Source of the DNA: Escherichia coli
Lineage (GTDB): Bacteria > Pseudomonadota > Gammaproteobacteria > Enterobacterales > Enterobacteriaceae
Length of the DNA stretch: 64,000 nucleotides
Direction: 5' to 3' (one strand)
NCBI RefSeq assembly: GCF_044324875.1
Contig: NZ_CP172185.1
Part shown: positions 13,285 to 53,659 of the stretch, in pieces
How positions within the stretch are numbered: the first letter of the stretch is position 1
How the letters are laid out: each line of letters starts with the position of its first letter
Notes under the pieces: model-generated
Database searches by the model: none
What the model saw: only the letters and a program-made list of their open reading frames with translations
Told to the model about the DNA's origin: nothing
Translations under genes and position numbers: made by a program

Positions 13285-13297
13285 TGATCAGACATGA

Positions 13298-13327
13298 GAT
13301 AAATGAAGGGGGATCCGTGAGATAAAT
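13298..13327. repeat. left-end terminal repeats (GAGATAAAT x2), putative transposase binding sites
   Basis: GATAAAT at 13298-13304 and 13321-13327, mirrored at the right end. Confidence 0.4.
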
Positions 13328-13480
13328 AACGAATTGGAGTGGGTTAACATGGGTTCTGGTGAACAGAACTGAAATTCTTTTCCGCTATACGATAGATAAG
13401 TCGGGCATTGAAATCATCCTTCCTGGCAACTTAGAATCGAGTTTGCTGAAACATGACCCGCAACAAAAAGGATGATTCCA

Positions 13481-13642
13481 ATGACTACTCAAAACAATAA
13501 GCATGATAGCCTGGATTACTCAGAAAAGCCCAAAAGCAAGCACATCGTGACGTTCGAGCGCGATTCCGGTAGAAAAGGAGAATCGTCTTCCTCTGCCAAT
13601 AAAACCACTATGCCGGCAGCCCCTGCCCCAGGGAAAAAATAA
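13481..13642 (+). CDS. hypothetical small hydrophilic protein (53 aa); may be spurious
   Basis: ATG with AAGGA 9 bp upstream; low-complexity Ser/Lys-rich product; convergent with the membrane-protein gene (3-bp gap). Confidence 0.25.
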   Translation: MTTQNNKHDSLDYSEKPKSKHIVTFERDSGRKGESSSSANKTTMPAAPAPGKK

Positions 13643-13645
13643 ACA

Positions 13646-14278
13646 TCATTCATCGTTCGTTGCACGAACGCGCCTGATCTCCACTCTGGCAATCTGATCT
13701 GCTGGAATATAGGTTGCCAGAGCTCCCCAGTACTTATCAACCACGCCTTTATACTCTTCCCATTCGTTACTGCCTGAAGGGCTGCTGTGCGTGACGTAAA
13801 GAACCATATCGCCTTTATTCCCCAGGGTAAACGGACCGTTAGGCCACTCTTCAAAGTTCCCTGGCAGCCGTGACATCATACCGGAACCATCGCGAAGAAT
13901 CACTCTGACCTCGGTAACGCTGAAGCCTGTTTGATCAAACATTGCCTGCCATGCTGAGCTGGTATCGTCAGACCATGAAATATCATTATTCCACAGTAAT
14001 CTGTACATCCATTTGCGACCGTACCTGCGCCACCACGCACCGCATGTAACGGCACACAGAAGTGCTGGTGGTGTTGCCAGCCAGGCATTCAGACCTGCCC
14101 ACATAACAGCCTGGTAAGCCATCATTGCTGTCAGGCCAAAAATCAGCGAAGAAAAAGTCACCTCAATGGGCTTGTGGTGATCCTTCAGTCCCACATTCGC
14201 AATAAAATACCCAATATAGCCACTGGTCAGGGTCACCAGTGTTGCCCATGGCAGATTTAACAACGAAACGTCAAACAT
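13646..14278 (-). CDS. prophage accessory membrane protein (about 3 TM helices plus ~120-aa soluble C-terminal domain), function unknown
   Basis: Start at MFDVSLLNL with GGGAGA SD 7 nt upstream; the longer ORF to 14356 would begin inside the terminator hairpin. Confidence 0.6.
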   Translation of the reverse strand: MFDVSLLNLPWATLVTLTSGYIGYFIANVGLKDHHKPIEVTFSSLIFGLTAMMAYQAVMWAGLNAWLATPPALLCAVTCGAWWRRYGRKWMYRLLWNNDISWSDDTSSAWQAMFDQTGFSVTEVRVILRDGSGMMSRLPGNFEEWPNGPFTLGNKGDMVLYVTHSSPSGSNEWEEYKGVVDKYWGALATYIPADQIARVEIRRVRATNDE

Positions 14279-14315
14279 ATTTTCTCCCTGCATCCTGAAT
14301 ACTAAAGAGAGAGCA

Positions 14316-14351
14316 TAAAAAAAGCACGGTAAGGGGTCTACCGTGCTTTTA
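14316..14351. terminator. bidirectional rho-independent terminator between early operon (mor) and left-end accessory gene
   Basis: A-run, 9-bp stem AGCACGGTA / TACCGTGCT with 7-nt loop, T-run. Confidence 0.55.
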
Positions 14352-14392
14352 TACAATAAGGAGATTTTTGAAAGGACTTTAACAAGCAGGAA

Positions 14393-14791
14393 TTATCTGG
14401 ATTTGTTAACGTCTTTCGTCTCCTCTGGCAGATCTTCATCAAACAACCTGCCCTGCATCCGATCCAGTTCTTCTTTTCTGACCCGCTTAACCACGCTGTA
14501 GACCCACTGAAGCGAAACACCAAACTTGCGGGCCAGTTCGTGGTGGTTGCGTCCGTTAAACTCCCTGAAGATTTCCCGGTCGCGCTGACTGACCTTCCAT
14601 ACCATGCCCATCGGGAAATAAACGTTTTGCCCGCCCCAGACCTGCATCATTCGGTTCGCGACGGCCTGACCAATCTGGTCGGCAATTGCGGGCTCAATAT
14701 CAATAATCTCGCGAACGGTCTCAGAGGTATGCTGTGCCAGCTCCACCAGGAGTTCCGGCCCTTTACTTCGAAACTGATTCAGGTCGCTCAT
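14393..14791 (-). CDS. mor: Mor-family middle/late transcription activator
   Basis: 132-aa ORF with the C-terminal segment FREFNGRNHHELARKFGVSLQWVYSVVKRVRK matching Mu Mor. Confidence 0.8.
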   Translation of the reverse strand: MSDLNQFRSKGPELLVELAQHTSETVREIIDIEPAIADQIGQAVANRMMQVWGGQNVYFPMGMVWKVSQRDREIFREFNGRNHHELARKFGVSLQWVYSVVKRVRKEELDRMQGRLFDEDLPEETKDVNKSR

Positions 14792-15254
14792 GTTTTACTC
14801 CCGCAGCTCTGTGCTGCCACTTCTTCAGTTTCTCAATAACACTGCTTGCCTGTTCAGTATTGAGCCAGCGCAGGGCGCTGATGCCCGTTTCCCGCTTGAT
14901 CCACCGCGCTAATGCATTTTCTGAACGGTCACGAACAATGCCGGCAGCAGCCATTTCAAGCCATAGCGCACGGATTTTCCTGGACTGCGGATGGTTATCC
15001 AGCGGTAAACCGGAGCTGGCTTTTCCGGCAGGCTTAACGCGAAAGCCTTTCCTTTTCATGGATTCCAGCACGCAGTTTAGTTGTGTGGTATCCATTCCTT
15101 TGGTTGAGGCTTTACCGGTCAGCCCCTGTAACATCTGGCGATAGGTGTCTTCATCCATACCCAGTTCATTACGGGCAATATGAATGAGCTGGATAAGACG
15201 TTGTTTAGTCATCATCGTTGCTCCTTTTACCTGCGCCACCGATATAATCGACAT
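14763..15254 (-). CDS. GemA/gp16-like protein (DUF1018)
   Basis: 163-aa ORF immediately upstream of mor as in Mu; family recognised from memory. Confidence 0.6.
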   Translation of the reverse strand: MSIISVAQVKGATMMTKQRLIQLIHIARNELGMDEDTYRQMLQGLTGKASTKGMDTTQLNCVLESMKRKGFRVKPAGKASSGLPLDNHPQSRKIRALWLEMAAAGIVRDRSENALARWIKRETGISALRWLNTEQASSVIEKLKKWQHRAAGVKHERPESVSK

Positions 15255-17413: not shown

Positions 17414-17944
17414 TTACTGCACATCCTGCTCAAAAGGAATTATTGAAAAATCCTCAATGTCGCTTTTAATGGAAATACCGGGAATATTTTTCACGGCCTC
17501 TTTTTCATTCAGGATAGCGTCTTTATTTATTTCCTCTTTTACACGAATAAAGCGCTCAAGCCCCAGACGTCTCAGTAATTCAATAACATTATCCGCCCCA
17601 CGGATACTGACTGATGGCGGACGGTTTCGCCACTGCACCTCGCCGGTGGTAAGGTTAGCGAACTTCACCTTCCCGTTGCCGGTCAGTTCATCACGGTGCG
17701 CCTCACACCATGTCTGGATACCGGACTGCAGTTCGGCCATGCGTTTTTTCAGGCTCTCGGTGAGCGGGGCATAACGTGCGGTGATATCGCCAATGGCGTC
17801 ATTCATTTCTGTTTCAGCCCTGACCAGTTCACGTTGTGCGTCACCGAGTAGTCTGATTCCCTCAATGACCTCTTCGCGTGTCCCTGGTACCCAGAGTGCC
17901 GCTGCGGCCTTGATACGTTTTGCCCCTTTTGTACTTTTTGCCAT
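17414..17944 (-). CDS. gam: Gam-like host-nuclease inhibitor (Mu Gam family)
   Basis: 176-aa ORF aligns along its length with recalled Mu Gam (TEMNDAI, WCEA.RDELT, RPPSVSIRG, GLERFIR, EDFSIIPFEQ). Confidence 0.85.
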   Translation of the reverse strand: MAKSTKGAKRIKAAAALWVPGTREEVIEGIRLLGDAQRELVRAETEMNDAIGDITARYAPLTESLKKRMAELQSGIQTWCEAHRDELTGNGKVKFANLTTGEVQWRNRPPSVSIRGADNVIELLRRLGLERFIRVKEEINKDAILNEKEAVKNIPGISIKSDIEDFSIIPFEQDVQ

Positions 17945-18243: not shown

Positions 18244-19410
18244 TTAAACTCCTTTGACAACGTCAGCGTTGACCTGTGGAACCCCGATTTCAGCGGCCAG
18301 ATTCATGGCGGCTATTACCAGGTTACTGACGGCCAGCGGATACAGCAGGCTGACCATATTTTTACGATGACTTCCCGGATTGCTCAGGCGGGCACGTATG
18401 GCATCCACTGCGCTGGCGTCCATAATGTCCGTCAGTTGTTTACCGGCCCGTTGCAGTTTGAACGTCAGAAATTCTTCAAGGTTATTGTCCAGAGGCAGAA
18501 GTTCGACCACCTCACAGCGCTGAACGACTTCACGGACTTCCATATTGCGTTCAGACAGTTTTGTCGCCAGTTCCGGCTGGCCAATCAGCACGATGGACAG
18601 CAGTTTTTTGAAACCGGACTCCAGCTCAAAAAAGCGTTTGAGGTGTTTCAGTGTCGGAATGGGCAGACTGTGGGCCTCCTCAATCACCAGAACGTGGCTG
18701 AACCCCGCCTGGCTGCTGTCTTTCAGGACGCGATGCAACTGGCGAAAGCGGGCGTCCTGACTGCGTCTGATGCTTTCCAGTGGTGCGATGGTACTGATAA
18801 TGGCTTCGGCAATAGCTGCTGCCTTCAGGGTTTTCCCTTTCACATCGTTGTCTTCCATAGCGATGATGTATGGCTCGATAACAATTACCGGCGCATTCTC
18901 GCGGTTAATACGTTCAGTCAGGTCGCGGCGCAGCGTGGATTTACCCGCACCGGACTCACCGATGACGGCCATAAACCCACCATGACGGGCTGTCTGGTAC
19001 AGCGCCTCACGCACGTAGCGAATGTCCGGGGTGGTGAACACATCATCAGAACCCTGCATGGCTTCATCGGCGAACGGGTCACGGAAAAGACCAAACGCTT
19101 TTTTGGTTGCTGGAAATAACACCTGTTTTTTGAGTAACATATTCTCTTCCTCACTGAGGCTCGTTTTATCTGTGGTACCCGCTGTACGGGGCGTGGCCGC
19201 GCCCTGTACAGCATCAAAACTCTTCGTTGTATCAATCCCCTGACTTTCCAGCCAGGACGCAAGACGCCGGCGCACTTCTCCGGGGCTGGTGCGGGGCCAC
19301 GCGTTATGATTCACAATCTGGGCCAGCGTGGCCTCAGAAACATCGACAGCTCTCGCCGCCACCGCCTGTGGAATACGGGCCTCTTTCAGTTGCTGCTTCA
19401 GTACCAGCAT
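18244..19410 (-). CDS. MuB-like transposition ATPase (AAA+)
   Basis: Walker A GESGAGKST; ATG at 19408-19410 preceded by GAGGAGGG SD; directly downstream of transposase. Confidence 0.75.
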   Translation of the reverse strand: MLVLKQQLKEARIPQAVAARAVDVSEATLAQIVNHNAWPRTSPGEVRRRLASWLESQGIDTTKSFDAVQGAATPRTAGTTDKTSLSEEENMLLKKQVLFPATKKAFGLFRDPFADEAMQGSDDVFTTPDIRYVREALYQTARHGGFMAVIGESGAGKSTLRRDLTERINRENAPVIVIEPYIIAMEDNDVKGKTLKAAAIAEAIISTIAPLESIRRSQDARFRQLHRVLKDSSQAGFSHVLVIEEAHSLPIPTLKHLKRFFELESGFKKLLSIVLIGQPELATKLSERNMEVREVVQRCEVVELLPLDNNLEEFLTFKLQRAGKQLTDIMDASAVDAIRARLSNPGSHRKNMVSLLYPLAVSNLVIAAMNLAAEIGVPQVNADVVKGV

Positions 19411-19420
19411 GTTTCCCTCC

Positions 19421-21190
19421 TCAGTTGCCGTTAACAATGCTGATAACGCTGCTGCGGGCCGGCGTGGTCAGCGTGGCCATGACTTCATCCAGTGCGGCTT
19501 CCGGTACGCCGTCCGGGTACTGTGCTGTTAACTGGCGGTAATGTTCCGGCGTCCAGGTCAGGCCGTCGGCGCTGAACTTATCGCGCAGGGCTTTCGCGGC
19601 CTCCACATGAGTCATGGGACGCTGTTCAGTGCGCGGTCCGCGTACGTCAGAGGCCTGACCACGCTTCGGTATACAGGCCGGAAGTGTGGCGTCATCAATA
19701 TGTTTATACGGGTCAAGCCGCCCGCCGAACGGCAGCGCCTTCGCCTTGCGTGCGGCAGCTGCATCTGCGGCGTTGTCTGTACCGGTGACCAGCGCTTCGG
19801 TTTCTTTTGCCGCCATCTGCGCCGGGGTTTCCGGCAGGGCTTTGTAACTTTCGCCAAATACCGCCGCGCCTTCAGCAAAGCCAAACTCGTTCTTTCTGAC
19901 CTCTTCGACCAGGAAGAACGTCTCGTGGCCGTCCTCACCGGTCAGAACCACCTGTGCCACATCGCTGCGCCACGGGTTACGGGTAATCATCAGTTTTTCA
20001 CCGACCAGTACGCCCGGTACCGTTGATACGTCAAATTCAGTGCCCCGGAACGAGACACGAAGTTTTGGCGTGACTTTGCGGAGTTCTGGTGCCGCCACAG
20101 CCAGTTCACGACATACCTCAACGGAAGGCGCTTTTTTCAGCTGCTCAGCAGTAATCTTCAGCCAGATATCCGTGCGGGTTTTACCGTGGCGGCTGTGAAC
20201 AGCCGTGGCGTTAAAGTGGCTGCGCCATTTCGCGGCCAGCGCGTTGAGTTCTTCCAGACTGTGAACCGGCCGGAACTTCAGACCCGGCTCCAGCTTGCGT
20301 TCGATAATGTCACGCGCCTTTTCCACCTGTCCGGTGGCGCGGGCGTTATGCGGCTTGTGCGCTATCAGGTCGATGCCCAGTGAGCGGCACATGTTTTTCG
20401 TCATACCCGCGGTGTTTGCCGAGCCGGGGTCGAGATAGAGTATTTTTGGCACGCCGTGCAGCACGTCTGCGCCGCCACGCTCCTGCATGGCGTTGATAAG
20501 CACAGAACACAGGTTCTCACCGGATTCCGCACCCGTCACATACTCAACGTAAATCCAGCCGCTGGCATGGTCGGTAATCTCGTAACTCCACACGCGGTCA
20601 CTGGCGATACGGGCAAGGTTAGCGGGCTTGTTTTTGTAGAATTTCGCGCTGTCCATCACCTGCAGCCCTTTATGTCCATTGCTCAGGTAGTAAAGCGTGC
20701 AGAGTGAGGCGTCAATCTGCCAGACATGATTGGGGTGCAGACTGGCCACTTCGGTATGCGGTGCAGGGGCATCCAGTTGTTCCGGGTGCAGGCCATAGTT
20801 ACGCAGGGCACGACTGATGGCATCTTCGGACAACGGGAAAAACTCACCGGTGGTTTCATCTGTTCTGCCTGCGGAGATAAAGCCGTTAGCCCGCAGGGTT
20901 TCCACTGCATCCGCGATGGAATAGAGACGCTTACCGTTCTTGCGGGTGGCCTCACGTAGTGTGGCAGATATCAGCGCGGCTTCGTCGCGGGTCAGGGTGC
21001 TGCGTCCGGCATCGGCGCGTTTTTTGCGTTTATCAGTCACAGAGACCTCCTTCAGCCTGCGCAGCAGAGTGGCGCGGGACATGCCAAGTTCAGCACAGGC
21101 AGCGTCGTATATTGCACCGCGTTTACCATGCCCCGCATTACGTGCCGCGCGGGCTGTTTCAACAAGTTTTTCAGTCAGTGCCGGGGTCAT
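19421..21190 (-). CDS. DDE transposase (Mu A-like function, rve-type catalytic core with N-terminal HTH)
   Basis: 589-aa ORF; HTH RATLLRRLKEV; HVWQIDASLC core; position upstream of MuB-like gene. Confidence 0.8.
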   Translation of the reverse strand: MTPALTEKLVETARAARNAGHGKRGAIYDAACAELGMSRATLLRRLKEVSVTDKRKKRADAGRSTLTRDEAALISATLREATRKNGKRLYSIADAVETLRANGFISAGRTDETTGEFFPLSEDAISRALRNYGLHPEQLDAPAPHTEVASLHPNHVWQIDASLCTLYYLSNGHKGLQVMDSAKFYKNKPANLARIASDRVWSYEITDHASGWIYVEYVTGAESGENLCSVLINAMQERGGADVLHGVPKILYLDPGSANTAGMTKNMCRSLGIDLIAHKPHNARATGQVEKARDIIERKLEPGLKFRPVHSLEELNALAAKWRSHFNATAVHSRHGKTRTDIWLKITAEQLKKAPSVEVCRELAVAAPELRKVTPKLRVSFRGTEFDVSTVPGVLVGEKLMITRNPWRSDVAQVVLTGEDGHETFFLVEEVRKNEFGFAEGAAVFGESYKALPETPAQMAAKETEALVTGTDNAADAAAARKAKALPFGGRLDPYKHIDDATLPACIPKRGQASDVRGPRTEQRPMTHVEAAKALRDKFSADGLTWTPEHYRQLTAQYPDGVPEAALDEVMATLTTPARSSVISIVNGN

Positions 21191-22811: not shown

Positions 22812-23000
22812 TCAGGCTGCCTGAGCTGTTGATTTCAGCCCCAGTTTCACGGCGATTTCATGGGATTTACCGTAACGTGCTTTGCTCTGCCCATTGAGAA
22901 CGCGGTATACCTCATTGCGGTTGTAGCCGTTTTCTTCTGCCCAGCGGGTGAAAGTGATCCCGCGCTGGCGGAAGAGAGCTTTGACTTGTTCTGCAGTCAT
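22812..23000 (-). CDS. ner: Ner-like small DNA-binding protein (Cro-equivalent)
   Basis: 62-aa ORF with AAGGAGA SD, divergent from the repressor; Ner-like HTH pattern. Confidence 0.55.
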   Translation of the reverse strand: MTAEQVKALFRQRGITFTRWAEENGYNRNEVYRVLNGQSKARYGKSHEIAVKLGLKSTAQAA

Positions 23001-23100
23001 CGTTGTCTCCTTTGTTGATGCAATGATGTTTGCCTTATGTGTGATAGATTATGGTGCAGATTATCTCACCAGTCAACTTAAAGAGTGCAGAAAAACTCAC
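23001..23100. promoter_or_regulatory. divergent early control region between ner and repressor (candidate operators)
   Basis: 100-bp AT-rich spacer containing the direct repeat AGATTAT twice (GATAGATTATGGTGCAGATTATCTC). Confidence 0.35.
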
Positions 23101-23439
23101 ATGATCGGGTTACGTATTAAAGAAGAAAGAGAGCGTCTATCTCTTACACAGCAAGGGTTGGCTGATGCTATCGGTGTGGCAAAGAGAACTTTTATTGATT
23201 GGGAAAAAGATCGCACTTCTCCTACTGCAGTGCAGTTATCTGCACTATCAGAAATCGGTGTAGATGTTTTGTATGTAGTTACTGGGGTGCGGAGTCAGCC
23301 TGTTGTTGCACCTTATATGTCACAAGAAAAGAAAGAGTTAATGGATGCATTCGACGAGATGAGCCCCGAACAACGGAGGGCAATTCTTGAGGTCGGCAAA
23401 GTCTTCATTCAACCCAAACCAAGCAAACTCGCAGGCTGA
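23101..23439 (+). CDS. XRE-family HTH repressor (c-like)
   Basis: Internal start MIGLRIKEERERLSLTQQGLADAIGVAKRTFIDWEKDRTSP, a classic XRE HTH; divergent from ner. Confidence 0.6.
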   Translation: MIGLRIKEERERLSLTQQGLADAIGVAKRTFIDWEKDRTSPTAVQLSALSEIGVDVLYVVTGVRSQPVVAPYMSQEKKELMDAFDEMSPEQRRAILEVGKVFIQPKPSKLAG

Positions 23440-23557: not shown

Positions 23558-24322
23558 TTAGAAATTGCAGATCACCAGCTCACGGCGTGGAGTTGATTTG
23601 CCTGCCAGACTGTAGTTGATGTTCACTGTCTGTATGTTCAGTCCAGTGAACACCTCGCGCATCTGCGGGATGTCGTTCACCGAAATTATCATCTTTCCTC
23701 TGATGCACCGGGCCAGCTCTGCCAGCCGCGAGTAGTTCCCTTCAGGAAAATCCACACCATAGCCTTCTGTACCCAGATACGGCGGGTCACAGTAGAACAG
23801 CGTGTGCGGACGGTCATAGCGCTCAATGCACTGTTGCCAGTCCATGTGTTCTATCACCGTTCTGGAAAGCCGCAGGTGTGCCGCTGACAGTTCTTCCTCG
23901 ATACGCAGCAGGTTGAAGCGTGGCGGGGATGTGGTGGAGGTGCCGAAGCTGTGCTCTGCCACCTTGCCGCCAAACGCCTGCTTCTGGAGGTAGTAGAACC
24001 GTGCTGCACGCTGGATATCCGTCAGTGTTTCTGTCGGGGTGATCTGCAGCCATTTGTAGATCTGCCGGCTGACCAGCGCCCATTTGAACTGGCGGACAAA
24101 TTCTTCCAGATGATGTTTTACCACCCGATACAGATTTACCAGTTCACCATTGATATCGTTAATGACTTCGAGCTTACCAGGTGTCTTAAGAAAATAGAGC
24201 GCTGCTGCGCCGCAGAACGGCTCCACGTAACATTCATGCGCCGGAAACAGCGGCAGGATGTGTTTTGCCAGGCGACGTTTGCCACCAATCCATGGAACGA
24301 TGGGTAATGTCTGCATTTTCAT
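23558..24322 (-). CDS. Dam-type N6-adenine DNA methyltransferase (D12 class)
   Basis: 254-aa ORF with DPPY catalytic motif and N-terminal FCGAAALYF SAM-binding motif. Confidence 0.8.
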   Translation of the reverse strand: MKMQTLPIVPWIGGKRRLAKHILPLFPAHECYVEPFCGAAALYFLKTPGKLEVINDINGELVNLYRVVKHHLEEFVRQFKWALVSRQIYKWLQITPTETLTDIQRAARFYYLQKQAFGGKVAEHSFGTSTTSPPRFNLLRIEEELSAAHLRLSRTVIEHMDWQQCIERYDRPHTLFYCDPPYLGTEGYGVDFPEGNYSRLAELARCIRGKMIISVNDIPQMREVFTGLNIQTVNINYSLAGKSTPRRELVICNF

Positions 24323-24514: not shown

Positions 24515-24730
24515 TTATCCGGGGCGATTTTCTGACCTTATCTGGTCCAGGGCATAAGTGATCCCTTCTGCAAAAACAGAAGTATCAAACTGCTTTTGTA
24601 TTTCCTGAAAATGAACAGTGGCACGACAGACACTCAGTTCTCCGCGATGTAACCGGATAATATCTTCCAGAACATTGTTCACTGCTTCGGCACGGCGCTG
24701 ATGTTCTGTTAACGTTAATCGGGGATTCAT
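24515..24730 (-). CDS. hypothetical 71-aa protein upstream of dam
   Basis: ATG with AAGGAG SD 8 nt upstream; no recognisable motif. Confidence 0.5.
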   Translation of the reverse strand: MNPRLTLTEHQRRAEAVNNVLEDIIRLHRGELSVCRATVHFQEIQKQFDTSVFAEGITYALDQIRSENRPG

Positions 24731-41690: not shown

Positions 41691-41740
41691 TCACGCGCTT
41701 CTCCCGACATACTGCCCTGAACTTACACAGGAGCACAATC

Positions 41741-42076: not shown

Positions 42077-42233
42077 TGCCCTCGATACTGACGATCTGGA
42101 GATGTGGCTGGAGCAGGCTGAAGAGCAAATAAAAAGCGAGTACGGCGACAAATCATAGTACAGACAGCCGCCAGTAGCGGCTGTTCTGCGTTATCCCCTC
42201 ACGTCTTTTCACCTTCCCCGGAGGTTAACCACT

Positions 42234-45185: not shown

Positions 45186-46069
45186 TGTTTGCCGTACTGG
45201 GTGATATTGAGTTTGATCTGATTACCTACTGGGACGGCTTCGAGGCCACGTTCGGCGTCGATTATGCGGAGCATGCCCGCATCGGGGGTAAGCCTGGCCT
45301 GCAGTTCGTCGGCGACAGGCTGGACGAAATCCAGATAAGTCTGGTCTTCCATCAGCATTATTGTGCACCCGATGTGGAGCTGGCGAGACTGCGAACAACC
45401 ATGAAAGCCCATCAGGCACTGGCGCTGGTCTTCGGCAACGGTGACTATCGTGGCTGGTTCGTGATTACCGATGTGACCGCAACCAGCGAGCAGACAGACA
45501 GCACCGGTAACGTGCTGGCTGTCAGTGCCACCGTGTCTCTCCGGGAATACACCGGTGATCCGAAAAATCCTCTGCAACCACCGGCAATACGCACGAAGCT
45601 CCCGGGTGTCGGGGCGGTCTCCGGTGCCATTCCTTCACCTTCAGGGGTGGCGCAGTTCATCCGCAACGGCGTCAACTATGCGAAACAGGCGCAGTCTGTA
45701 CTCCAGACCACTATCAGCGCCGTTCGGGTGACACAGAAAATGAAGGATAACCCCGTTGTCGCACTGACCCGTGTGCCGGGGCTGATGAGCGGACTGGGTA
45801 ATATCTCCGGGGCTCTGGGGAAAAGTGTTCCGGCGTTTAACGCACTCTCTGAATCCATGCCCGATGCCATCAGTCTGGCCAGAACAGCCAGCGAAGCAGC
45901 CACGTATGTACAGCAGGCACAGTCTGCGCTGAGTGGTGTGGACAAAAGAAATATTGCAGGTGCTCTGGATACCGTTTCCGGGCAGCTTAACGCCGCCAGC
46001 ACAGCATTCAACCGCATGTCTCCGGGATTAAGTGCAATGGCCGCCAGAATACTGACGAGGAGTGTGTGA
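45185..46069 (+). CDS. tail protein (Mu N / DNA-circularisation-like)
   Basis: 294-aa ORF directly after tape measure; assignment by order. Confidence 0.5.
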   Translation: MFAVLGDIEFDLITYWDGFEATFGVDYAEHARIGGKPGLQFVGDRLDEIQISLVFHQHYCAPDVELARLRTTMKAHQALALVFGNGDYRGWFVITDVTATSEQTDSTGNVLAVSATVSLREYTGDPKNPLQPPAIRTKLPGVGAVSGAIPSPSGVAQFIRNGVNYAKQAQSVLQTTISAVRVTQKMKDNPVVALTRVPGLMSGLGNISGALGKSVPAFNALSESMPDAISLARTASEAATYVQQAQSALSGVDKRNIAGALDTVSGQLNAASTAFNRMSPGLSAMAARILTRSV

Positions 46070-46281
46070 TGTTTCTTGAACATGTTACCCGTGACGGAGA
46101 GCGCTGGGATTCGCTGGCATGGCAGTACTACGGTGACCCGCTGGGCTATCCCCGGATTATTGCCGCCAATCCGCACGTGGCCATCACGCCGGTGCTGCCC
46201 TCCGGGCTGTTGTTACTGATCCCGGTGATTGAGGCTGAAGAAGCCCGTACAGAAGAGGATATTGCCCCATGGCTGAGATAA
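46066..46281 (+). CDS. small tail protein (P2 gpX-like)
   Basis: 71-aa ORF in P2/Mu-type tail gene order. Confidence 0.45.
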   Translation: MMFLEHVTRDGERWDSLAWQYYGDPLGYPRIIAANPHVAITPVLPSGLLLLIPVIEAEEARTEEDIAPWLR

Positions 46282-47423
46282 ACAGCACTGCGCAAGTCAC
46301 TTCAGCGTTAACCAGCGTCAGCGATGTGCTGACACCGGTGTTCACTCTGTGGTATCTGCAGAAAAACATCACCTCTGATATCGCGCCTTATGTCACCCGT
46401 GTGACCTGGAGCGATAACATCAAAAATGAGTCCGATACCATTGAGGTGGAGCTGGACGACACCGATGGCCGCTGGCTGGATAAGTGGTATCCGGGCAAGG
46501 GTGACACGCTGACGCTGAAAATGGGCTATCAGGGCGAGAAGCTGCTGTCCTGCGGTACGTTCTCTATAGACGAGATCGAAGTGAGTTCGCCCGCTTCCGT
46601 TGTTTCTATCCGTGGGGTGGCCACCTCGGTTAACAGTGCTCTGCGGACTAAAACCAGTCGTGGTTTTGAGAACACCACGCTGGCAGCTGTTGCGGGGCGG
46701 ATTGCCAGAAAGCACCGACTGAAACTGGTGGGCAGCATTGAGTCCATCAGAATCGACCGGGTGACCCAGTATGCTGAAACCGACGTGGGTTTTCTGCGCC
46801 GGCTGGCCAGCGAGTATGGTTATGCAGTGAAAGTGGTCAGTGACCAGCTGATTTTTTCTCATCTGGCCACACTGCGCAGTCAGGAGCCGGTCAGGCAGTT
46901 AAAACCGCAGGATGTGGCCCGCTTTTCCCTGCGTGACACCATCAACCGGGTCTATAAATCTGCAAAGGTAAAACACCAGAAAAGCAGCAGTAAAAAACTG
47001 ATCGTCTACGAAGCTGATGGTGGTACCCGTGAAAGCGACAAAAAGCTCAAAGGTGGTAAGGTTACCAGCGCTGACTCACTTAAAGTTAACAGCCGCGTCA
47101 GCGACCCGGACAGTGCCCGGATTAAAGCGGATTCAGCACTGGCCAGACATAACGAATACCAGCAGAACGGCTCCCTGACGCTGACGGGAACACCTCAACT
47201 GACAGCAGGCAACAAAATTGAACTGGTGGGTTTTGGGCAGTTATCCGGGCCATGGCTCATAACCACTGCCCGCCATGCGTTTGACCGTAACAGCGGCTAC
47301 ACCACAGAGCTGGAAGTGGCACGGGGGCCAGTCACAAGAGGGAAAAAACAAAAAACTCAGAAACTCACGGTTTATCACCCGGATGGCAGTACATCGACGG
47401 TGATTAAGGAGAAGAAAAAATGA
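46269..47423 (+). CDS. tail protein (P2 gpD / Mu P-like)
   Basis: 384-aa ORF; size and order. Confidence 0.55.
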   Translation: MAEINSTAQVTSALTSVSDVLTPVFTLWYLQKNITSDIAPYVTRVTWSDNIKNESDTIEVELDDTDGRWLDKWYPGKGDTLTLKMGYQGEKLLSCGTFSIDEIEVSSPASVVSIRGVATSVNSALRTKTSRGFENTTLAAVAGRIARKHRLKLVGSIESIRIDRVTQYAETDVGFLRRLASEYGYAVKVVSDQLIFSHLATLRSQEPVRQLKPQDVARFSLRDTINRVYKSAKVKHQKSSSKKLIVYEADGGTRESDKKLKGGKVTSADSLKVNSRVSDPDSARIKADSALARHNEYQQNGSLTLTGTPQLTAGNKIELVGFGQLSGPWLITTARHAFDRNSGYTTELEVARGPVTRGKKQKTQKLTVYHPDGSTSTVIKEKKK

Positions 47424-48016
47424 CTGGTGTCACTCGTCAGGTCGGTACGGTCAGTGCCGTTGATGCCGACAGGGTTCAGGCCCGCGTTCGTCTGCCTGAA
47501 TGCGATAACCTGCGCACAAACTGGCTTAACGTGCTGCAGCGCAATACCCAGGATAACAAAGATTACTGGCTCCCTGACGTGGGGGAGCAGGTTGAGGTGC
47601 TGCTCGATGCCAACGGCGAGGATGGTGTTATTCTGGGCGCGGTGTATTCAGACGTCGATAAACCACCGTTCAGTGACAAAAATATCCGGGGAACCCGGTT
47701 TGCTGATGGTGCAGAGTACAGCTACAACCGGAAGACGCACACTCTGACCATCCGGGGCGGCATTGAGCATATTGTCATTGAGTGTGGTGCTGATGTGGTA
47801 TTGAAAACACAGAAAGCCACGATTGACGCACCGGAAACCGAACTTACCGGAGATCTGCGTGTCAGGGGAAAGCTGATTTACGAAGGAGGCATGGCGGGTT
47901 CTGGTGGTAAAGGTGTTACCGCGACCATCCATGGCAATATCGAGATTAAAGGGAATGCCCATGCCACGGGCAGTATGCTGTCTGATGGCGAAAACTCCAG
48001 CCACCACTCCCACTGA
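47420..48016 (+). CDS. baseplate spike protein (gpV-like)
   Basis: 198-aa ORF with Gly-rich, His-rich C-terminus. Confidence 0.6.
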   Translation: MTGVTRQVGTVSAVDADRVQARVRLPECDNLRTNWLNVLQRNTQDNKDYWLPDVGEQVEVLLDANGEDGVILGAVYSDVDKPPFSDKNIRGTRFADGAEYSYNRKTHTLTIRGGIEHIVIECGADVVLKTQKATIDAPETELTGDLRVRGKLIYEGGMAGSGGKGVTATIHGNIEIKGNAHATGSMLSDGENSSHHSH

Positions 48017-48028
48017 GCTTCTTAAACG

Positions 48029-48040
48029 CCTTTAATATCA
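48029..48040 (+). promoter_or_regulatory. late-promoter-like motif CCTTTAATATCA upstream of baseplate genes
   Basis: Shared 11-mer; followed by hairpin GGGGGCA-ATAC-TGCCCCC at 48053-48070 abutting the ATG. Confidence 0.4.
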
Positions 48041-48070
48041 GCGTTCCCGCACGGGGGCAATACTGCCCCC

Positions 48071-48418
48071 ATGAAAACGACCTCAGTATTCTGGCAACCA
48101 GCCCTGCAGGCTCCCGGCGAAATTGTCCGGGGGCTGGATGATATCCGGCAGGCGATTCAAATTATCCTGCGGACTCCCCGCGGCAGCGACCCGCATCGCC
48201 CGGAGTTCGGCAGCAATCTGCATCTTTATATCGACTGGCCTGTAGACCGGGCCATTCCGCATGTGGTGCGCGAATCCGTCGATGCCATCCGGCGCTGGGA
48301 GCCCCGCTGCCAGCTTATGTCAGTTAAACCCGCCGTCGACGGCGAACATCTTACGCTCCGGGTGAGCTGGAAAGGCTCAGACGGACAGACCCGGACTCAG
48401 GAGCTGCTATGGCGCTGA
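48071..48418 (+). CDS. baseplate protein (gpW / gp25-like)
   Basis: 115-aa ORF; size and order. Confidence 0.6.
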   Translation: MKTTSVFWQPALQAPGEIVRGLDDIRQAIQIILRTPRGSDPHRPEFGSNLHLYIDWPVDRAIPHVVRESVDAIRRWEPRCQLMSVKPAVDGEHLTLRVSWKGSDGQTRTQELLWR

Positions 48419-49512
48419 CAGAACCCGATTTTATTGAACGCGATGCCGACAAAATCACGGCAGAAATGATTGCGAAGTATGAAGCGGATACCGGCAAAAC
48501 GCTGTACCCGGCACAGGCAGAACGTCTGCTGATTGATCTGTGGGCCTATCGCGAAATGCTGGTCAGGGTTGCGGTACAGGAGGCAGCAAAGCAGAATCTG
48601 GTCGCCTTTGCCCGTGAGCCGATGATTGATTACCTCGGTGAACTGGTCGGTGTATACCGTCTTGCCGCGCAGCCTGCCACCACCACGCTCCAGTTCTCCG
48701 TAGATGAGGCACTGGCCATTGATGTGCTGATCCCGGCAGGCACCCGCGTCAGCGCTTCCGACAGCGTTATTTTTGCCACCGATACAGATGTGGTACTGAA
48801 GCCCGGATTGCTGCTGGTCAATGTCACGTCCACCTGTACCGAACCCGGTACCGCTGGTAACGGCTGGCAACCTGCGCAGGTCAGTCAGTTACTCGATGAG
48901 ATTGATAACGTCGACCTGCTGGTGAGCAATCTGACGGCCAGTTCCGGCGGTTCAGAACAGGAAGACGATGACAGGCTCCGGGAGCGTATCAGGCTGGCCC
49001 CGGAGTCATTCACCAATGCCGGAAGCCGTGGCGCATACCGCTTTCATGCCATGCAGGCCCATCCCAACATTGTCGATGTTGCTGTGCTTTCCCCGGTTCC
49101 CGGGACCGTAGATCTGTATCCGCTGCTCAGTACCGGTCTGCCGGACGGCGGTGTTCTCACGCTGGTAGAGAGTTTCTGCTCTGATGAGAAAGTCAGGCCA
49201 CTCACTGATACAGTGCGGGCTAAAACACCAGTGAAGGTGGATTACACCATTGAAGCCAGGATTACGATCTATCGTGATCAGGATGCCAGGTCTGTAAAAG
49301 ATGCCGCTAACAGCGCCATACAGAACTGGGTGGCATCACGTGCCGCCACGCTGGGGCGTGATATTGTCCCCAGCCAGATTATCAGTGCATTGTCCGTTTC
49401 CGGGGTGTACCAGGTTGAACTGGTGACACCGGCACTGCGGGTGGTGGCAGAAAACGAATGGGCAAACTGTACGGCAATCACTCTTAACATGAGTGGAGTG
49501 TCTGATGACTGA
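48409..49512 (+). CDS. baseplate protein J-like
   Basis: 367-aa ORF; order. Confidence 0.65.
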   Translation: MALTEPDFIERDADKITAEMIAKYEADTGKTLYPAQAERLLIDLWAYREMLVRVAVQEAAKQNLVAFAREPMIDYLGELVGVYRLAAQPATTTLQFSVDEALAIDVLIPAGTRVSASDSVIFATDTDVVLKPGLLLVNVTSTCTEPGTAGNGWQPAQVSQLLDEIDNVDLLVSNLTASSGGSEQEDDDRLRERIRLAPESFTNAGSRGAYRFHAMQAHPNIVDVAVLSPVPGTVDLYPLLSTGLPDGGVLTLVESFCSDEKVRPLTDTVRAKTPVKVDYTIEARITIYRDQDARSVKDAANSAIQNWVASRAATLGRDIVPSQIISALSVSGVYQVELVTPALRVVAENEWANCTAITLNMSGVSDD

Positions 49513-50083
49513 GCCATTACAACTCCCGCCACCGCTTGAGGGTGATATCAGTCTCAGGACGCTGGGAAGACTGGCAGGACGGCTGGATAACATCGACCTG
49601 AGCGTACTGATGGTCTTTCTCGTCGATATCGTCGACAGTTCCGCGCTGCCATGGCTGGGCGAGCAGTTCTCACTGTCTGGCGATGGCTGGGAGCTGGCGG
49701 AATCGGACGATGTTCGCCGCATGCTTATAAAAGCAGCCATCGAACTGCACCGGTATAAAGGGACGCCGTGGTCAATCCGGGAAGTTATCCGCCGTTTTGG
49801 CTTTGGTGAAGTGGATCTGATTGAAGGCACAGGTCGTCTCAGTTACGACGGCAATCGCAGCTATAACGGACTGTTTGTTCATGGAGATGCAGCCGCCTGG
49901 GCAGTTTATCGCGTTATTCTGAAACAGCCCATTACTAACGATCAGGCCGCGATGCTGCGTCAGACGCTGGCTGCATTTGCACCGGCCCGCTGCCATCTGG
50001 CCAGCCTGGAGTATCAGTCTGTGGCCATTCGCTATAACAATACCGCCATCCATGATGGCAGTTATAACCACGGGAGCAGTTGA
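49493..50083 (+). CDS. tail protein (gpI-like)
   Basis: 196-aa ORF before tail fibre. Confidence 0.55.
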   Translation: MECLMTEPLQLPPPLEGDISLRTLGRLAGRLDNIDLSVLMVFLVDIVDSSALPWLGEQFSLSGDGWELAESDDVRRMLIKAAIELHRYKGTPWSIREVIRRFGFGEVDLIEGTGRLSYDGNRSYNGLFVHGDAAAWAVYRVILKQPITNDQAAMLRQTLAAFAPARCHLASLEYQSVAIRYNNTAIHDGSYNHGSS

Positions 50084-51798
50084 TTATGGGAAACCTGAAT
50101 GAAACAGAAAAGTGGGAAGAAAATATCTATCAACTGGAGACATCAGATCCGGTTCTGGGTGGTGCAGACGGGATATCAAATCGAGCCCCCCGGCAACTGG
50201 CAAACAGGACGAAATGGCTGAAGAAGAAAACGGAGGAAGCCGCACAGTCACTGGCTGAACACGTACGTTCCCGTAACCACCCGGACGCGACACTGACAGC
50301 TAAGGGGTTCACCCAACTGAGCAGTGCCACCAACAGCACCTCTGAAACGCTGGCCGCCACACCAAAAGCGGTCAAGGCTGCATACGACCTGGCAGCCGGC
50401 AAGGCGCCTGCCAGCCACACTCACCCGTGGAGTCAGATAACGGGAGTGCCTGCGGCTTCACTGACGGCAAAAGGCACCGTACAACTGAGCAGCGCCACGG
50501 ACAGTCAATCAGAAACTGAGGCTGCCACGCCGAAGGCTGTGAAAATCGCGTATGATCTGGCCCGGGGAAAATACACAGCCCAGGATGCAACAACGACCCG
50601 TAAAGGGATCGTACAACTGAGCAGTGCCATCAACAGCACGTCTGAAACGCTGGCCGCCACACCGAAAGCGGTCAAGGCTGCATACGACCTGGCAGCCGGC
50701 AAGGCGCCTGCCAGCCACACTCACCCGTGGAGTCAGATAACGGGAGTGCCTGCGGCTTCACTGACGGCAAAAGGCACCGTACAACTGAGCAGCGCCACGG
50801 ACAGTCAATCAGAAACTGAGGCTGCCACGCCGAAGGCTGTGAAAATCGCGTATGATCTGGCCCGGGGAAAATACACAGCCCAGGATGCAACAACGACCCG
50901 TAAAGGGATCGTACAACTGAGCAGTGCCATCAACAGCACGTCTGAAACGCTGGCCGCCACACCGAAAGCGGTCAAGGCTGCATACGACCTGGCAGCCGGC
51001 AAGGCGCCTGCCAGCCACACTCACCCGTGGAGTCAGATAACGGGAGTGCCTGCGGCCTCGCTGACGGCAAAAGGCACCGTACAACTGAGCAGTGCCATCA
51101 ACAGCACGTCTGAAATACTGGCCGCCACACCGAAAGCGGTCAAGGCTGCATACGATCTGGCAAACGGAAAACAACCGGCAGATGCCACGCTCACTGCTCT
51201 GGCAGGACTTGCCACTGCAGCAGATCGGTTGCCTTATTTTACCGGAGCAGACCGCGCAGCGCTGGCAACCCTTACAGCTATTGGTCGCGCTATTATCGCT
51301 AAGGGCAGTATAAAAGATGTCCTCAATTACCTTGGTTTGGGGGAAGGCTCTGCATTGCCTGTTGGTGTACCGGTTCCATGGCCCACCGCCACACCGCCAG
51401 CAGGCTGGTTACAGTGCAACGGAGCTACGTTCACCAAAGAACAATATCCTGTTCTGGCCAGAGTCTACCCGACCCTCCGTCTTCCCGATTTGCGCGGTGA
51501 GTTTATCCGTGGATGGGACGGTGGTCGCAAGGTTGATACCGGGCGTGCGCTACTTTCATTTCAGGAAGGGACTATCGTATCCGGTTTTGATGATAATGAT
51601 ACCGGAGATATCAGTTCGCTCGGCTCTACACAATACGGATTTGGTGACGCTTTAACCTCTAATCAACTGGGGGTCATAAATGGCAAAAAGTGGATATTTG
51701 ATGCATCCTCTAAAGGTGCACAAAGATATGACTGGTGGGCTTATGTATCAGCTCGCCCCCGCAATATCGCATTTAACTATATCGTGAGGGCGGCGTGA
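50080..51798 (+). CDS. side tail fibre protein (Stf-like) with invertible variable C-terminus
   Basis: 572-aa ORF with repeated TAKGxVQLSSAxNSTSETLAATPKAVK motifs, PWP region and C-terminal NIAFNYIVRAA as in lambda Stf. Confidence 0.8.
   Translation: MIMGNLNETEKWEENIYQLETSDPVLGGADGISNRAPRQLANRTKWLKKKTEEAAQSLAEHVRSRNHPDATLTAKGFTQLSSATNSTSETLAATPKAVKAAYDLAAGKAPASHTHPWSQITGVPAASLTAKGTVQLSSATDSQSETEAATPKAVKIAYDLARGKYTAQDATTTRKGIVQLSSAINSTSETLAATPKAVKAAYDLAAGKAPASHTHPWSQITGVPAASLTAKGTVQLSSATDSQSETEAATPKAVKIAYDLARGKYTAQDATTTRKGIVQLSSAINSTSETLAATPKAVKAAYDLAAGKAPASHTHPWSQITGVPAASLTAKGTVQLSSAINSTSEILAATPKAVKAAYDLANGKQPADATLTALAGLATAADRLPYFTGADRAALATLTAIGRAIIAKGSIKDVLNYLGLGEGSALPVGVPVPWPTATPPAGWLQCNGATFTKEQYPVLARVYPTLRLPDLRGEFIRGWDGGRKVDTGRALLSFQEGTIVSGFDDNDTGDISSLGSTQYGFGDALTSNQLGVINGKKWIFDASSKGAQRYDWWAYVSARPRNIAFNYIVRAA
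50287..51178 (+). repeat. tandem repeats in tail fibre gene (300-bp units, near-identical, with ~100-bp sub-repeats)
   Basis: Identical reverse-frame ORFs 50372..50593 and 50672..50893 show an exact 300-bp period; protein repeat of about 100 aa x3. Confidence 0.75.
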
Positions 51799-51804
51799 TA
51801 CCGT

Positions 51805-52419
51805 TCAGCCGGCAAGCGCCAGTGGCGCTTCCGGCCAGCTGATTTCAGGTGCCTTGCTGATATCCAGTGCGTTCAGCTCGTCGATATAATCCAGCACGGC
51901 GTTCAGTTTTGCCGTTTCTTCTGGTTTCAGACTGCGACCTGCCCGCAGTTTGAGGTTGATGAGGTCGATGGACTTCATCGCCTGATCCACCCGTTCCTGG
52001 CGTTGCAGTCTGGCAACCTCCAGCTCTGCGGCTCGCTGCCGTTCAGTATCGGTTACCCACGCCTCACCGTTCCAGGTATCCCATGGCGTGGCCGGCTGTT
52101 TTGTGGTGGTGTCCGCCGGGTAATCACCCGGCTGGGTAATCTGAACGGGAGTACCGTTCTCCGTGCTGTATACCGTCTCGCCGCGGTGATCAGGCACATG
52201 TTCCCACCCGTTCAGCGTGGCAGTCCGGCAAACCACGTAACCCGAAATTGCCTCCGGCGGTGCATCGGCGCACGAATGTGCCGGAGTACCCACCCCAAGG
52301 GCGAGATACTCCACAGAGGATGAGGTGTATTCCCGGGTTTCCTCGTCATAGTGATATACAGTGATATCGCCCGCTACAGTGGCGATACCGTTTTCATCCA
52401 GAACTGCAGTGTTACTCAT
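51805..52419 (-). CDS. tail fibre assembly protein (Tfa/U-like), cognate to the alternative fibre tip
   Basis: 204-aa ORF of Tfa type downstream of the alternative fibre C-terminus on the minus strand. Confidence 0.7.
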   Translation of the reverse strand: MSNTAVLDENGIATVAGDITVYHYDEETREYTSSSVEYLALGVGTPAHSCADAPPEAISGYVVCRTATLNGWEHVPDHRGETVYSTENGTPVQITQPGDYPADTTTKQPATPWDTWNGEAWVTDTERQRAAELEVARLQRQERVDQAMKSIDLINLKLRAGRSLKPEETAKLNAVLDYIDELNALDISKAPEISWPEAPLALAG

Positions 52420-52901
52420 TAAACTGCCCTCACAATGTAATTAAGTGCAATGCTACGGGGTCTGACAGTGATACCCTTCGCATACCCGCTTCTGATAGAG
52501 GTCAGAATAGTAGCCTGCATACCATTGTCTGACATTGCCACGACAGGATCGCTGAATGTTGTCCCGTCCGGCATTTTAAAGCTGCCCTCACGAAGGTCTG
52601 TAATGGAATCTTCATTGTTGAATCCCATGCCGACTATCCCCGAGGTTCCCGTAGTGTCCTGGTTATAATAATCCAGCATTGCTGTTCTTAACAGCGTTGC
52701 CCCTTGTGCGGACAGCAACTTACGTCCTGTATCAACTTTGCGCCCGTCGTCCCATCCACGGATAAACTCACCGCGCAAATCGGGAAGACGGAGGGTCGGG
52801 TAGGCTCTGGCCAGAACAGGATATTGTTCTTTTGTAAAGGCGCGCCCGTCGCACTTTAACCAGCCTGCTGGCGGTGTGGCGGTGGGCCACGGAACAGGCA
52901 C
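52419..52901 (-). CDS. alternative tail fibre C-terminal cassette (promoterless in current orientation)
   Basis: Begins PVPWPTATPPAGWL..., paralogous to the plus-strand fibre tip, ends NYIVRAV; lies inside the invertible segment. Confidence 0.7.
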   Translation of the reverse strand: MPVPWPTATPPAGWLKCDGRAFTKEQYPVLARAYPTLRLPDLRGEFIRGWDDGRKVDTGRKLLSAQGATLLRTAMLDYYNQDTTGTSGIVGMGFNNEDSITDLREGSFKMPDGTTFSDPVVAMSDNGMQATILTSIRSGYAKGITVRPRSIALNYIVRAV

Positions 52902-53002
52902 ACCAACGGGTAGCGCCGAGCCTTCTCCTAAACCAACGTTTATCTCTCAAATCCTCCTCACATTATCTCAGTACTTTAACCACTCAAAAGGGAGTATTTT
53001 TA

Positions 53003-53575
53003 ATGCTGATTGGCTACATACGTGTGTCAACAAATGACCAAAACACAGATTTGCAACGCAATGCATTAATGTGCGCAGGATGTGAACAGATTTTTGAGGA
53101 CAAAATGAGCGGAACCAAGTCGGAACGACCAGGCCTGAAACGCGCTTTAAAGTGCCTTAAAAGAGGGGATACATTGGTGGTCTGGAAGCTGGATCGGTTG
53201 GGTAGAAGAATGAAACACCTCATTGCTCTCACAGAAGAGCTACGCGCAAAAGGTGTCAATTTTCGCAGTCTGACGGATTCAATCGATACCAGCACTCCGA
53301 TGGGAAGGTTCTTTTTTCATATGATGGGTGCACTGGCAGAAATGGAGCGTGAACTGATAGTTGAGCGCACGCTGGCAGGACTGGCTGCTGCGCGAGCACA
53401 AGGGAGAGTTGGAGGACGTCGCCCGAAACTGACGAAGGAGCAGCATGAGCAGATCGCAAGATTGCTCCAGAAAGGGTATGACAGAAAGCGGCTGGCAATT
53501 ATCTATGATATTGGACTGTCAACGATCTACCGCTATCACCCTGTTGGGACTGTCATAACGGAACCTGAAATGTAA
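53003..53575 (+). CDS. gin: Gin/Hin/Cin-family serine DNA invertase
   Basis: MLIGYIRVSTNDQNTDLQRNAL... closely matches Mu Gin; ATG at 53003 with AAAGGGAG SD. Confidence 0.9.
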   Translation: MLIGYIRVSTNDQNTDLQRNALMCAGCEQIFEDKMSGTKSERPGLKRALKCLKRGDTLVVWKLDRLGRRMKHLIALTEELRAKGVNFRSLTDSIDTSTPMGRFFFHMMGALAEMERELIVERTLAGLAAARAQGRVGGRRPKLTKEQHEQIARLLQKGYDRKRLAIIYDIGLSTIYRYHPVGTVITEPEM

Positions 53576-53610
53576 TTCTTTTTCAAATAATGAAACGCCG
53601 CGTGGATGCC

Positions 53611-53640
53611 ATTTATCGCACAAGATAGAGCGCATTTATC
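53611..53640. repeat. right-end terminal repeats (ATTTATC x2), putative transposase binding sites
   Basis: CATTTATC at 53611-53617 and 53634-53640, inverted relative to left-end GATAAAT motifs. Confidence 0.4.
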
Positions 53641-53659
53641 GCGCGGCGCATCACGGAGG

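Follow-up and report, generated by a model that had tools for sequence, protein, structure and literature searches.

A transposable prophage, very probably of the BcepMu/B3 type, interrupts lhr in Escherichia coli

The 64,000-nt stretch of Escherichia coli contig NZ_CP172185.1 (assembly GCF_044324875.1) analysed here, referred to below as the window, contains 40,369 bp of foreign DNA within the lhr gene (nt 13285–53653). This segment is very probably a temperate transposable phage, almost intact and of the BcepMu/B3 type, that carries a Tn552-related rve transposase and entered lhr by DDE transposition. Without the IS element that it contains, the prophage measures 37,730 bp. The assignment to the BcepMu/B3 group is based on its rve-type transposase (TnpA), a 6-bp target-site duplication, TG...CA ends with inverted subterminal repeats, and an inverted early operon in which TnpB lies beside TnpA while GemA and Mor are distal; insertions were also found at many unrelated sites. 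The kind of element is already known, and nothing about it is new in kind. A first-pass annotation made from the window had called the prophage Mu-like, which describes its lifestyle well but not its family, as the 6-bp duplication, the lack of similarity to MuA and MuB, and the inverted early operon are BcepMu/B3-like. The features of the locus are listed in Table 1.

The lhr reading frame enters the foreign DNA after nt 13284 and picks up again at nt 53660. Joined, the two parts (nt 9584–13284 and 53660–54575) give 4617 nt, the length annotated for lhr in E. coli 042 (nt 1898415–1903031), and excision of the prophage together with one copy of CGGAGG restores lhr as it stands intact, at 4617 nt, in strain GN25. 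Across the joined junction, 0 of 200 positions were mismatched against GN25 and 3 of 200 against strain 042. The first-pass annotation had proposed both the interruption and the joined length, and the alignment it recommended, of the flanks to an lhr-intact genome, confirmed the empty site; its junction coordinates, shared CGGAGG, end sequences and GATAAAT repeats were each found where it had placed them. The restored gene is not open, as codon 483 is an in-frame TAA (nt 11030–11032; Tyr483, TAC to TAA), so that two separate lesions make lhr a pseudogene in this strain.

Taken by itself, the window leaves the length of the duplication ambiguous: with the ends shifted, GGAGG or CGGAG would also fit, as in the 5 bp originally proposed. 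Six other insertions of the element show that the duplication is 6 bp and that the element begins with TG and ends with CA, and the 5-bp figure, which also conflicted with the CGGAGG reported alongside it, was wrong. In all seven independent insertions, at unrelated loci of E. coli genomes, the 6-bp duplication is exact and the ends are unchanged (5'-TGATCAG...GCGCATCA-3'). The flanking hexamers, one per insertion, are CGGAGG, TCCTGT, GCGGAA, ACTAGC, AATAAT, ATATCC and CGCTGT, and no obvious target consensus was seen among these seven. At both ends, GATAAAT occurs at tip positions 14–20 and 37–43, within GnGATAAAT repeats at positions 12–20 and 35–43. The 9-mer GNGATAAAT has five occurrences in the 64-kb window, four of which are the terminal repeat positions. 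From their position and their conservation with BcepMu, L1/L2 and R1/R2 are presumed to be transposase-binding sites.

Table 1. Features of the interrupted lhr locus and its prophage (nt positions in the window).
Feature	Position	Strand	Remarks
lhr 5' part, ATP-dependent helicase	9584–13284	+	broken after nt 3701
Left target-site duplication copy	13279–13284		6 bp, CGGAGG
Left-end repeats L1, L2	13296–13327	+	L1 13296–13304, L2 13319–13327; both GAGATAAAT, 23 bp apart
Mor-family activator of late transcription	14393–14791	-	phrog_532; 56% to BcepMu gp01, 31% to Mu Mor
GemA (Mu gp16 family)	14763–15254	-	Pfam PF06252, E 2e-40
Gam, DNA-end-protecting nuclease inhibitor, Mu-type	17414–17944	-	phrog_491; 62% to Mu Gam
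TnpB, AAA+ (AAA_22/ExeA-family) transposition ATPase	18244–19437	-	Walker A GESGAGKS
TnpA, rve-type DDE transposase	19421–21190	-	589 aa; triad D160, D254, E290
Immunity region	22812–23439		
Small DNA-binding protein	22812–23000	-	first gene of leftward early operon
HTH repressor-like gene	about 23101–23439	+	divergent from early operon
Orphan Dam-family DNA adenine methyltransferase	23558–24322	-	
Holin	25788–26138	+	
SLT-type endolysin	26141–26875	+	
Rz-like spanin gene	26865–30161	+	split by IS: 26865–26965 and about 29605–30161
IS21-family element (ISSso4-like)	26966–29604	+	istA, istB; 2,639 bp, TG...CA ends, AAAG flanks
Head/packaging module	30792–37912	+	small terminase-like protein, large terminase, portal, Mu F-like and G-like proteins, protease/scaffold, major head protein
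P2-type contractile tail	39411–51798	+	sheath, tube, tape measure, baseplate, tail fibre (50080–51798)
Invertible tail-fibre segment	51329–52939		229-nt inverted repeats 51329–51557 and 52711–52939
Fibre-assembly gene	51805–52419	-	inside invertible segment
Alternative fibre C-terminus	52419–52901	-	inside invertible segment
Gin-type serine DNA invertase	53003–53575	+	190 aa; 76% to Mu Gin
Right-end repeats R2, R1	53611–53642	-	R2 53611–53619, R1 53634–53642; both GCGATAAAT; mirror L2 and L1
Right target-site duplication copy	53654–53659		6 bp, CGGAGG
lhr 3' part	53660–54575	+	

Over its full length, TnpA shares 68% identity with TnpA of BcepMu and 56% with that of Pseudomonas B3; its DDE triad is intact and conserved with BcepMu. 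TnpB retains an intact Walker A motif and is 59% identical to BcepMu gp08. Pfam returned rve as the sole match to TnpA and none of the Mu-transposase families, and NCBIfam gave only sub-threshold matches of TnpA to IS481 and IS21; family-level NCBIfam names were not obtained for Gam, Mor, GemA or the spanin. Searches of TnpA and TnpB against solved structures returned weak retroviral-integrase and generic P-loop matches only, and MuA was not found. The gene list of the first-pass annotation (a DDE transposase, an ATPase, and Gam, GemA, Mor and Gin) is otherwise sound, but BLAST gives no support to its 'MuB-like' label for the ATPase. The BLAST comparison it recommended bore out Gam and returned no MuA or MuB match for the transposase and ATPase.

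The spanin gene is uninterrupted in a second copy of the element, that of MS1494, where it encodes 217 aa and matches phrog_1403 (E 2e-89). In the present copy it is split by the IS21-family element, so host lysis is probably impaired. As the invertible segment is oriented here, no assembly gene follows the tail-fibre gene on the same strand. The Mu gix 26-mer gave no match with up to seven substitutions in nt 50000–53700, and the only gix-like sequences, which are weaker, mark the outer borders of the two 229-nt inverted repeats. Rfam and tRNA scans returned nothing inside the element. A search for defence cargo (PADLOC) detected only the orphan methyltransferase and a weak SngB-like match (E 6e-4), the latter taken as chance.

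From what is known of Mu, B3 and BcepMu, we infer a cycle of replicative transposition under Mor control. TnpA would bind the GnGATAAAT repeats, L1/L2 and their mirror images R1/R2, and bring the two TG...CA ends together, with the AAA+ ATPase TnpB delivering the target DNA. Attack by the 3'-OH ends at target positions staggered by 6 bp, followed by repair of the gaps, would leave the CGGAGG duplication. Upon induction, the early operon is predicted to be read leftward from about nt 23000, specifying TnpA, TnpB, Gam, GemA and lastly Mor, and the genome would be replicated by repeated transposition. Mor would next activate the lysis, head and tail genes, which run rightward, and headful packaging would take in the DNA together with flanking host sequence; inversion of the segment by Gin would exchange the tail-fibre tip.

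Copies with the same ends occur at many loci, among them kefF, yodD, a phosphopentomutase gene and a LysR-family regulator gene; each is bordered by its own duplication, and the flanking genes differ between copies. The MS1494 copy sits in kefF and shows 8 SNPs across 37.7 kb and no indels relative to the present copy, making the two 99.98% identical apart from the 2.64-kb IS. Such near-identity at another locus points to recent mobility. The transposase gene occupies 707 positions spread over 638 complete E. coli genomes, and at least 80% of it is carried by 629 of 5,426 complete E. coli genomes, or about one in nine. These transposase-gene counts were used for prevalence in preference to matches to the left end (758 records), a figure inflated by partial and possibly also flank-only matches. 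Insertions have probably also occurred in clbG, irp1 and several flagellar genes; the element is common, and insertional mutation in E. coli does arise from it. Annotation pipelines leave this prophage mostly as 'hypothetical protein' or 'DDE-type integrase'; the gain for annotation lies in the exact ends (nt 13285 and 53653), the 6-bp duplication and the right family.

Related isolated phages are PhiKM (94–98% DNA identity to the element), Phi06_2974 B and Klebsiella KP12; a literature search for phage PhiKM gave unrelated phage papers only. It is conceivable, if rather doubtful, that the element and these phages form a distinct and formally undescribed genus in which Gam and Gin modules derived from Mu are joined to a BcepMu backbone. 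Transposition with a 6-bp stagger could then be studied in E. coli beside Mu, and the IS21-disrupted copy may be non-lysing yet still able to transpose.

It is very improbable that the element is a true Mu-family (Muvirus-type) prophage with MuA/MuB and a 5-bp duplication. Several of its proteins match those of Mu (Gam 62%, Gin 76%, large terminase 49%, F 48%, GemA 36% and Mor 31%), the ends are TG...CA, and insertion is independent of a specific site. However, the duplication is 6 bp in seven of seven insertions, tblastn at E<=1e-3 matched neither TnpA (with rve alone in Pfam) nor TnpB to Mu, and the 69 phage records matched by TnpA do not include Mu. The early operon also runs opposite to that of Mu, and no more than 3.3% of the element could be aligned with Mu DNA. 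At the family level, the length of the duplication and the missing homology to MuA and MuB refute this reading. Less probable still is a prophage or genomic island that an integrase placed at an att site in lhr. Short direct repeats do flank the insert, but they differ at every locus, and seven different hexamers leave no att core and refute this reading. The 'recombinase family protein' encoded at the right end, which might be taken for an integrase, is the 190-aa Gin-type serine invertase beside its inverted-repeat-bounded segment; no integrase was found among ORFs of more than 300 aa, and the window contains no tRNA. That entry was by transposition and not by an integrase, as first proposed, agrees with the many loci with their own duplications and with the absence of a tyrosine integrase and a tRNA.

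For the BcepMu/B3-type prophage itself, a further possibility concerns its state and not its kind. The chances are evenly balanced that this copy is lysis-defective, perhaps still transposing and replicating but unable to complete lysis owing to the IS in the spanin gene. The 2,639-bp IS is missing from the otherwise nearly identical MS1494 copy, the gene it splits belongs to an Rz-like spanin family, and Rz/Rz1 occupy the same position in BcepMu. Spanins are required in Gram-negative hosts to disrupt the outer membrane. On the other hand, spanin defects are conditional in the laboratory, for example upon shaking or at low divalent cation levels, and all other genes are intact, with 8 substitutions and no indels. 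Polar effects of the IS on downstream late genes could, moreover, widen the defect beyond lysis.

The Burkholderia phage BcepMu was reportedly described by Summer et al. in 2004. Sequence comparison with its reference record (NC_005882; relatives include phiE255) shows homology and synteny, with 37 of 53 ORFs of the element matching and their order kept. Common to both are the whole-genome gene order, a leftward early operon ending in GemA and Mor, a lysis cassette of holin, SLT endolysin and Rz, a Mu-type head with a P2-type tail, TGA... tips, and G[A/C]GATA[A/T][A/T]T repeats at positions 12–20 and 35–43 of both ends. The element alone carries a Mu-type Gam, Gin with the invertible fibre segment, and the Dam methylase, none of which has a BcepMu match, whereas an acyltransferase (gp53) is found only in BcepMu. 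As 24.6% of the element DNA aligns to BcepMu, at 67.6% identity, and the criterion for the genus Bcepmuvirus (ICTV) is about 70% genome-wide nucleotide identity, the element does not belong to that genus in the strict sense. BcepMu-related prophages have been described as having an rve core and TG...CA termini (PMC2628397).

B3 resembles the element in its TnpA (56% identical), inverted early operon, 6-bp duplication and TG-CA ends (PMC8705779, PMC5977238), but is a siphovirus with a flexible tail, whereas the element specifies a contractile P2-type tail and has other late genes. In B3-like genomes the early operon is inverted and the transposition proteins are unlike those of Mu (PMC5977238). 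B3 TnpA has been called Tn552-related, and transposases of the B3/Tn552 family produce TG-CA ends and a 6-bp duplication, a footprint ascribed to that family (PMC8705779). The BcepMu transposase is likewise annotated as Tn552/IS1604-type. By annotation and literature, the element is like Tn552 of Staphylococcus in combining an rve-type DDE transposase with an ATPase, although Tn552 is a small transposon and the element a phage. With Mu it shares the inferred lifestyle (transposition, a Mor-controlled late switch, Gam, GemA and Gin fibre switching), the TG...CA ends and homologous terminase, portal, F and G proteins. Mu differs in its 5-bp duplication, in MuA and MuB that are unrelated at the BLAST level, in rightward early genes, in three transposase sites per end of other sequence, and in its own tail type and com/mom. 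A BcepMu/B3-type system native to E. coli would offer a handy comparison with Mu, setting a 6-bp against a 5-bp stagger, with an unrelated transposase and ATPase.

Sequence of the Escherichia coli lhr gene lies on both sides of the prophage, left of nt 13285 and right of nt 53659. For a 600-bp flank, 4,382 complete E. coli genomes gave a match in lhr, the one in strain GN25 being 100% identical. Strains 042 and GN25 have the empty site, GCTGACGGAGGAGCCTGG; in the window the site is occupied, with GCTGACGGAGG followed by the prophage (TGATCAG...GCGCATCA) and then CGGAGGAGCCTGG. When nt 13284 is joined to nt 53660, the flanks differ from GN25 at none of 200 bp and from 042 at three, and the two parts of lhr sum to 4617 nt, the annotated length of the gene in 042. 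These comparisons confirm the junctions proposed in the first-pass annotation, which was also correct about the CGGAGG shared by both junctions, the end sequences and the GATAAAT repeats. The 64-kb window has five copies of the motif GNGATAAAT; four of these form the mirrored repeats L1/L2 and R1/R2, at positions 12-20 and 35-43 from the tip of each end.

As a duplication of 5 bp cannot be told from one of 6 bp in the window alone, other copies were sought. Hundreds of complete E. coli genomes contain the end sequences, adjoining different genes, and six further insertions were compared (strains MS1494, TUM13770, Ec1117, AR_0085, PK8275 and one ST131 isolate). All start with TGATCAG, finish with GCGCATCA and lie between exact 6-bp direct repeats (TCCTGT, GCGGAA, ACTAGC, AATAAT, ATATCC and CGCTGT). 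With CGGAGG of the window, the same termini and an exact hexamer are present in 7/7 insertions, which fixes the limits of the 40,369-bp prophage and corrects the 5-bp duplication reported initially to 6 bp. In the same genome collection, the left-end query also matched 105 places on plasmids, and 140 records at 80-90% identity form a class of their own. Coverage of the greater part of the 416-bp left end was seen in only 117 records, compared with 595 for the right end, so the stretch just inside the left tip appears to be variable within this prophage family.

The lhr gene also carries an in-frame stop, Tyr483 (TAC) having become TAA because base 11032 is A rather than C. An identical 300-bp stretch around this stop was found in none of the 4,381 matching genomes; the best matches were one base off, and in strain 104 (the one examined) that base is 11032. 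Together with the insertion, this means that lhr is disrupted twice in the source strain.

Gene content was taken from the PGAP annotation of a near-identical copy in strain MS1494 and from PHROGs and Pfam searches. The leftward early operon specifies a small DNA-binding protein, an HTH protein, a DUF3102 protein, the DDE transposase TnpA, the AAA+ ATPase TnpB and Gam; several small ORFs come next, and GemA and Mor close the operon. Between it and the rightward late block lie a repressor-like gene, transcribed divergently, and the gene of a Dam methylase. The late block begins with holin, SLT endolysin, Rz-like spanin, terminase and portal genes, continues with head genes (Mu F-like and G-like proteins, protease, major head protein) and P2-type tail genes (sheath, tube, tape measure, baseplate, fibre), and has the invertible fibre segment and the Gin-type invertase gene at its far end. 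PADLOC returned no convincing match among the two groups of small genes of unknown function. The group next to the holin gene differs between the MS1494 and TUM13770 copies, and so may be accessory cargo.

Features of the window and their coordinates
Feature	Position (nt)	Strand	Remarks
lhr, left part	9584-13284		
lhr in-frame stop	11030-11032		
Prophage	13285-53653		
Small genes of unknown function	13481-14278		extreme left end, beyond Mor
Gam	17414-17944		
Small genes of unknown function	24515-25770		between Dam methylase and holin
IS21-family element	26966-29604		ISSso4-like; istA and istB; inside prophage, flanked by AAAG
Tandem repeat, tape-measure gene	44050-44584		in-frame; 261-bp unit, 2 copies, 95%
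Tandem repeat, tail-fibre gene	50314-51097		in-frame; 300-bp unit, 2.6 copies, 98% matches
Tail-fibre segment	51329-52939		between 229-nt inverted repeats, 86% complementary
Gin	53003-53575		
lhr, right part	53660-54575		
STnc550 sRNA family (Rfam RF02081)	58322-58712	-	full-length match, 396 bits; enterobacterial; outside prophage

The tail-fibre segment is probably inverted by Gin. In its present orientation the fibre has 572 aa and no assembly gene lies downstream on its strand, while simulated inversion gives a 589-aa fibre with the assembly gene directly after it; as the segment holds one fibre-assembly gene, only the inverted orientation provides this arrangement. The Mu gix 26-mer was not found at the segment, where only weak gix-like sequences occur, at the repeat edges.

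Across 37.7 kb, the window prophage and the copy in kefF of strain MS1494 differ by only eight substitutions and no indels, which indicates recent spread. The sole large difference is the 2,639-bp IS element, missing from the otherwise 99.98% identical MS1494 copy and 99.6-99.9% identical to copies in other E. coli genomes among the matches listed. The gene it splits matches, in intact form, the Rz-like spanin family phrog_1403 (E 2e-89), and BcepMu has Rz/Rz1 at this position. Lysis of the window copy is probably impaired, and possibly downstream late-gene expression as well.

Among 5,426 complete E. coli genomes, 629 carry the transposase gene (coverage at least 80%); the gene occupies 707 places, at most three of them in any one genome. 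E. coli ST131 has been reported to harbour Bcepmuvirus-type prophages (bioRxiv 10.1101/2022.05.07.487787), and the GenBank phages Escherichia PhiKM, Escherichia Phi06_2974 B and Klebsiella KP12 show close DNA similarity. This kind of element is already described, as are the length of its duplication and its occurrence in E. coli; new here is only the insertion site, as the lhr junction was absent from every genome of the E. coli collection searched with the end sequences.

An integrase-based prophage in lhr is excluded: neither an integrase nor a tRNA was found, and flanking hexamers without any common sequence rule out an att core. At unrelated sites, insertion leaves a 6-bp duplication of the target, the mirrored subterminal repeats are conserved, and both transposition proteins are intact. 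TnpA (589 aa) has a Pfam match to rve only, its catalytic residues D160, D254 and E290 are conserved in the BcepMu protein and line up with the triad of retroviral integrases, and TnpB has a Walker A motif. By analogy with Mu, B3 and BcepMu, TnpA would bind L1/L2 and R1/R2 and pair the ends, TnpB would capture the target, and strand transfer would follow with a 6-bp stagger. Lytic growth would proceed by replicative transposition, with late genes switched on by Mor and headful packaging that includes host flanks.

At the family level, a phage of true Mu type is excluded: the duplication is 6 bp, the early operon is inverted and homology to MuA/MuB is lacking. B3 is likewise reported to duplicate 6 bp, described as the footprint of a B3/Tn552-family transposase, and both Mu-like and B3-like phages are reported to conserve TG-CA ends (PMC8705779); inversion of the early operon and different transposition proteins set B3-like genomes apart from Mu (PMC5977238). 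BcepMu-related prophages combine an rve core with TG...CA termini (PMC2628397), and the BcepMu ends share the layout seen here (TGA tip; G[A/C]GATA[A/T][A/T]T at 12-20 and 35-43 of both ends). Over its full length, TnpA is 68% identical to that of BcepMu and 56% to that of Pseudomonas phage B3, and Mu is absent among the 69 phage records matching it. At the DNA level, 24.6% of the prophage aligns to BcepMu (67.6% identity) and 3.3% to Mu. ORF-by-ORF tblastn of the 53 prophage ORFs found BcepMu homologues for 37, in the same order (TnpB 59%, Mor 56%, GemA 44%, sheath 76% identity), whereas Mu matched nine, TnpA and TnpB not among them. Eight of these were substantial (Gam 62%, Gin 76%, large terminase 49%, F 48%, GemA 36%, Mor 31%, G 28%, portal 26%), the ninth being a 39-aa stretch of tail fibre. 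Gam and Gin have no BcepMu counterpart. The prophage is a mosaic, with Mu-like Gam and Gin in an otherwise BcepMu-like genome.
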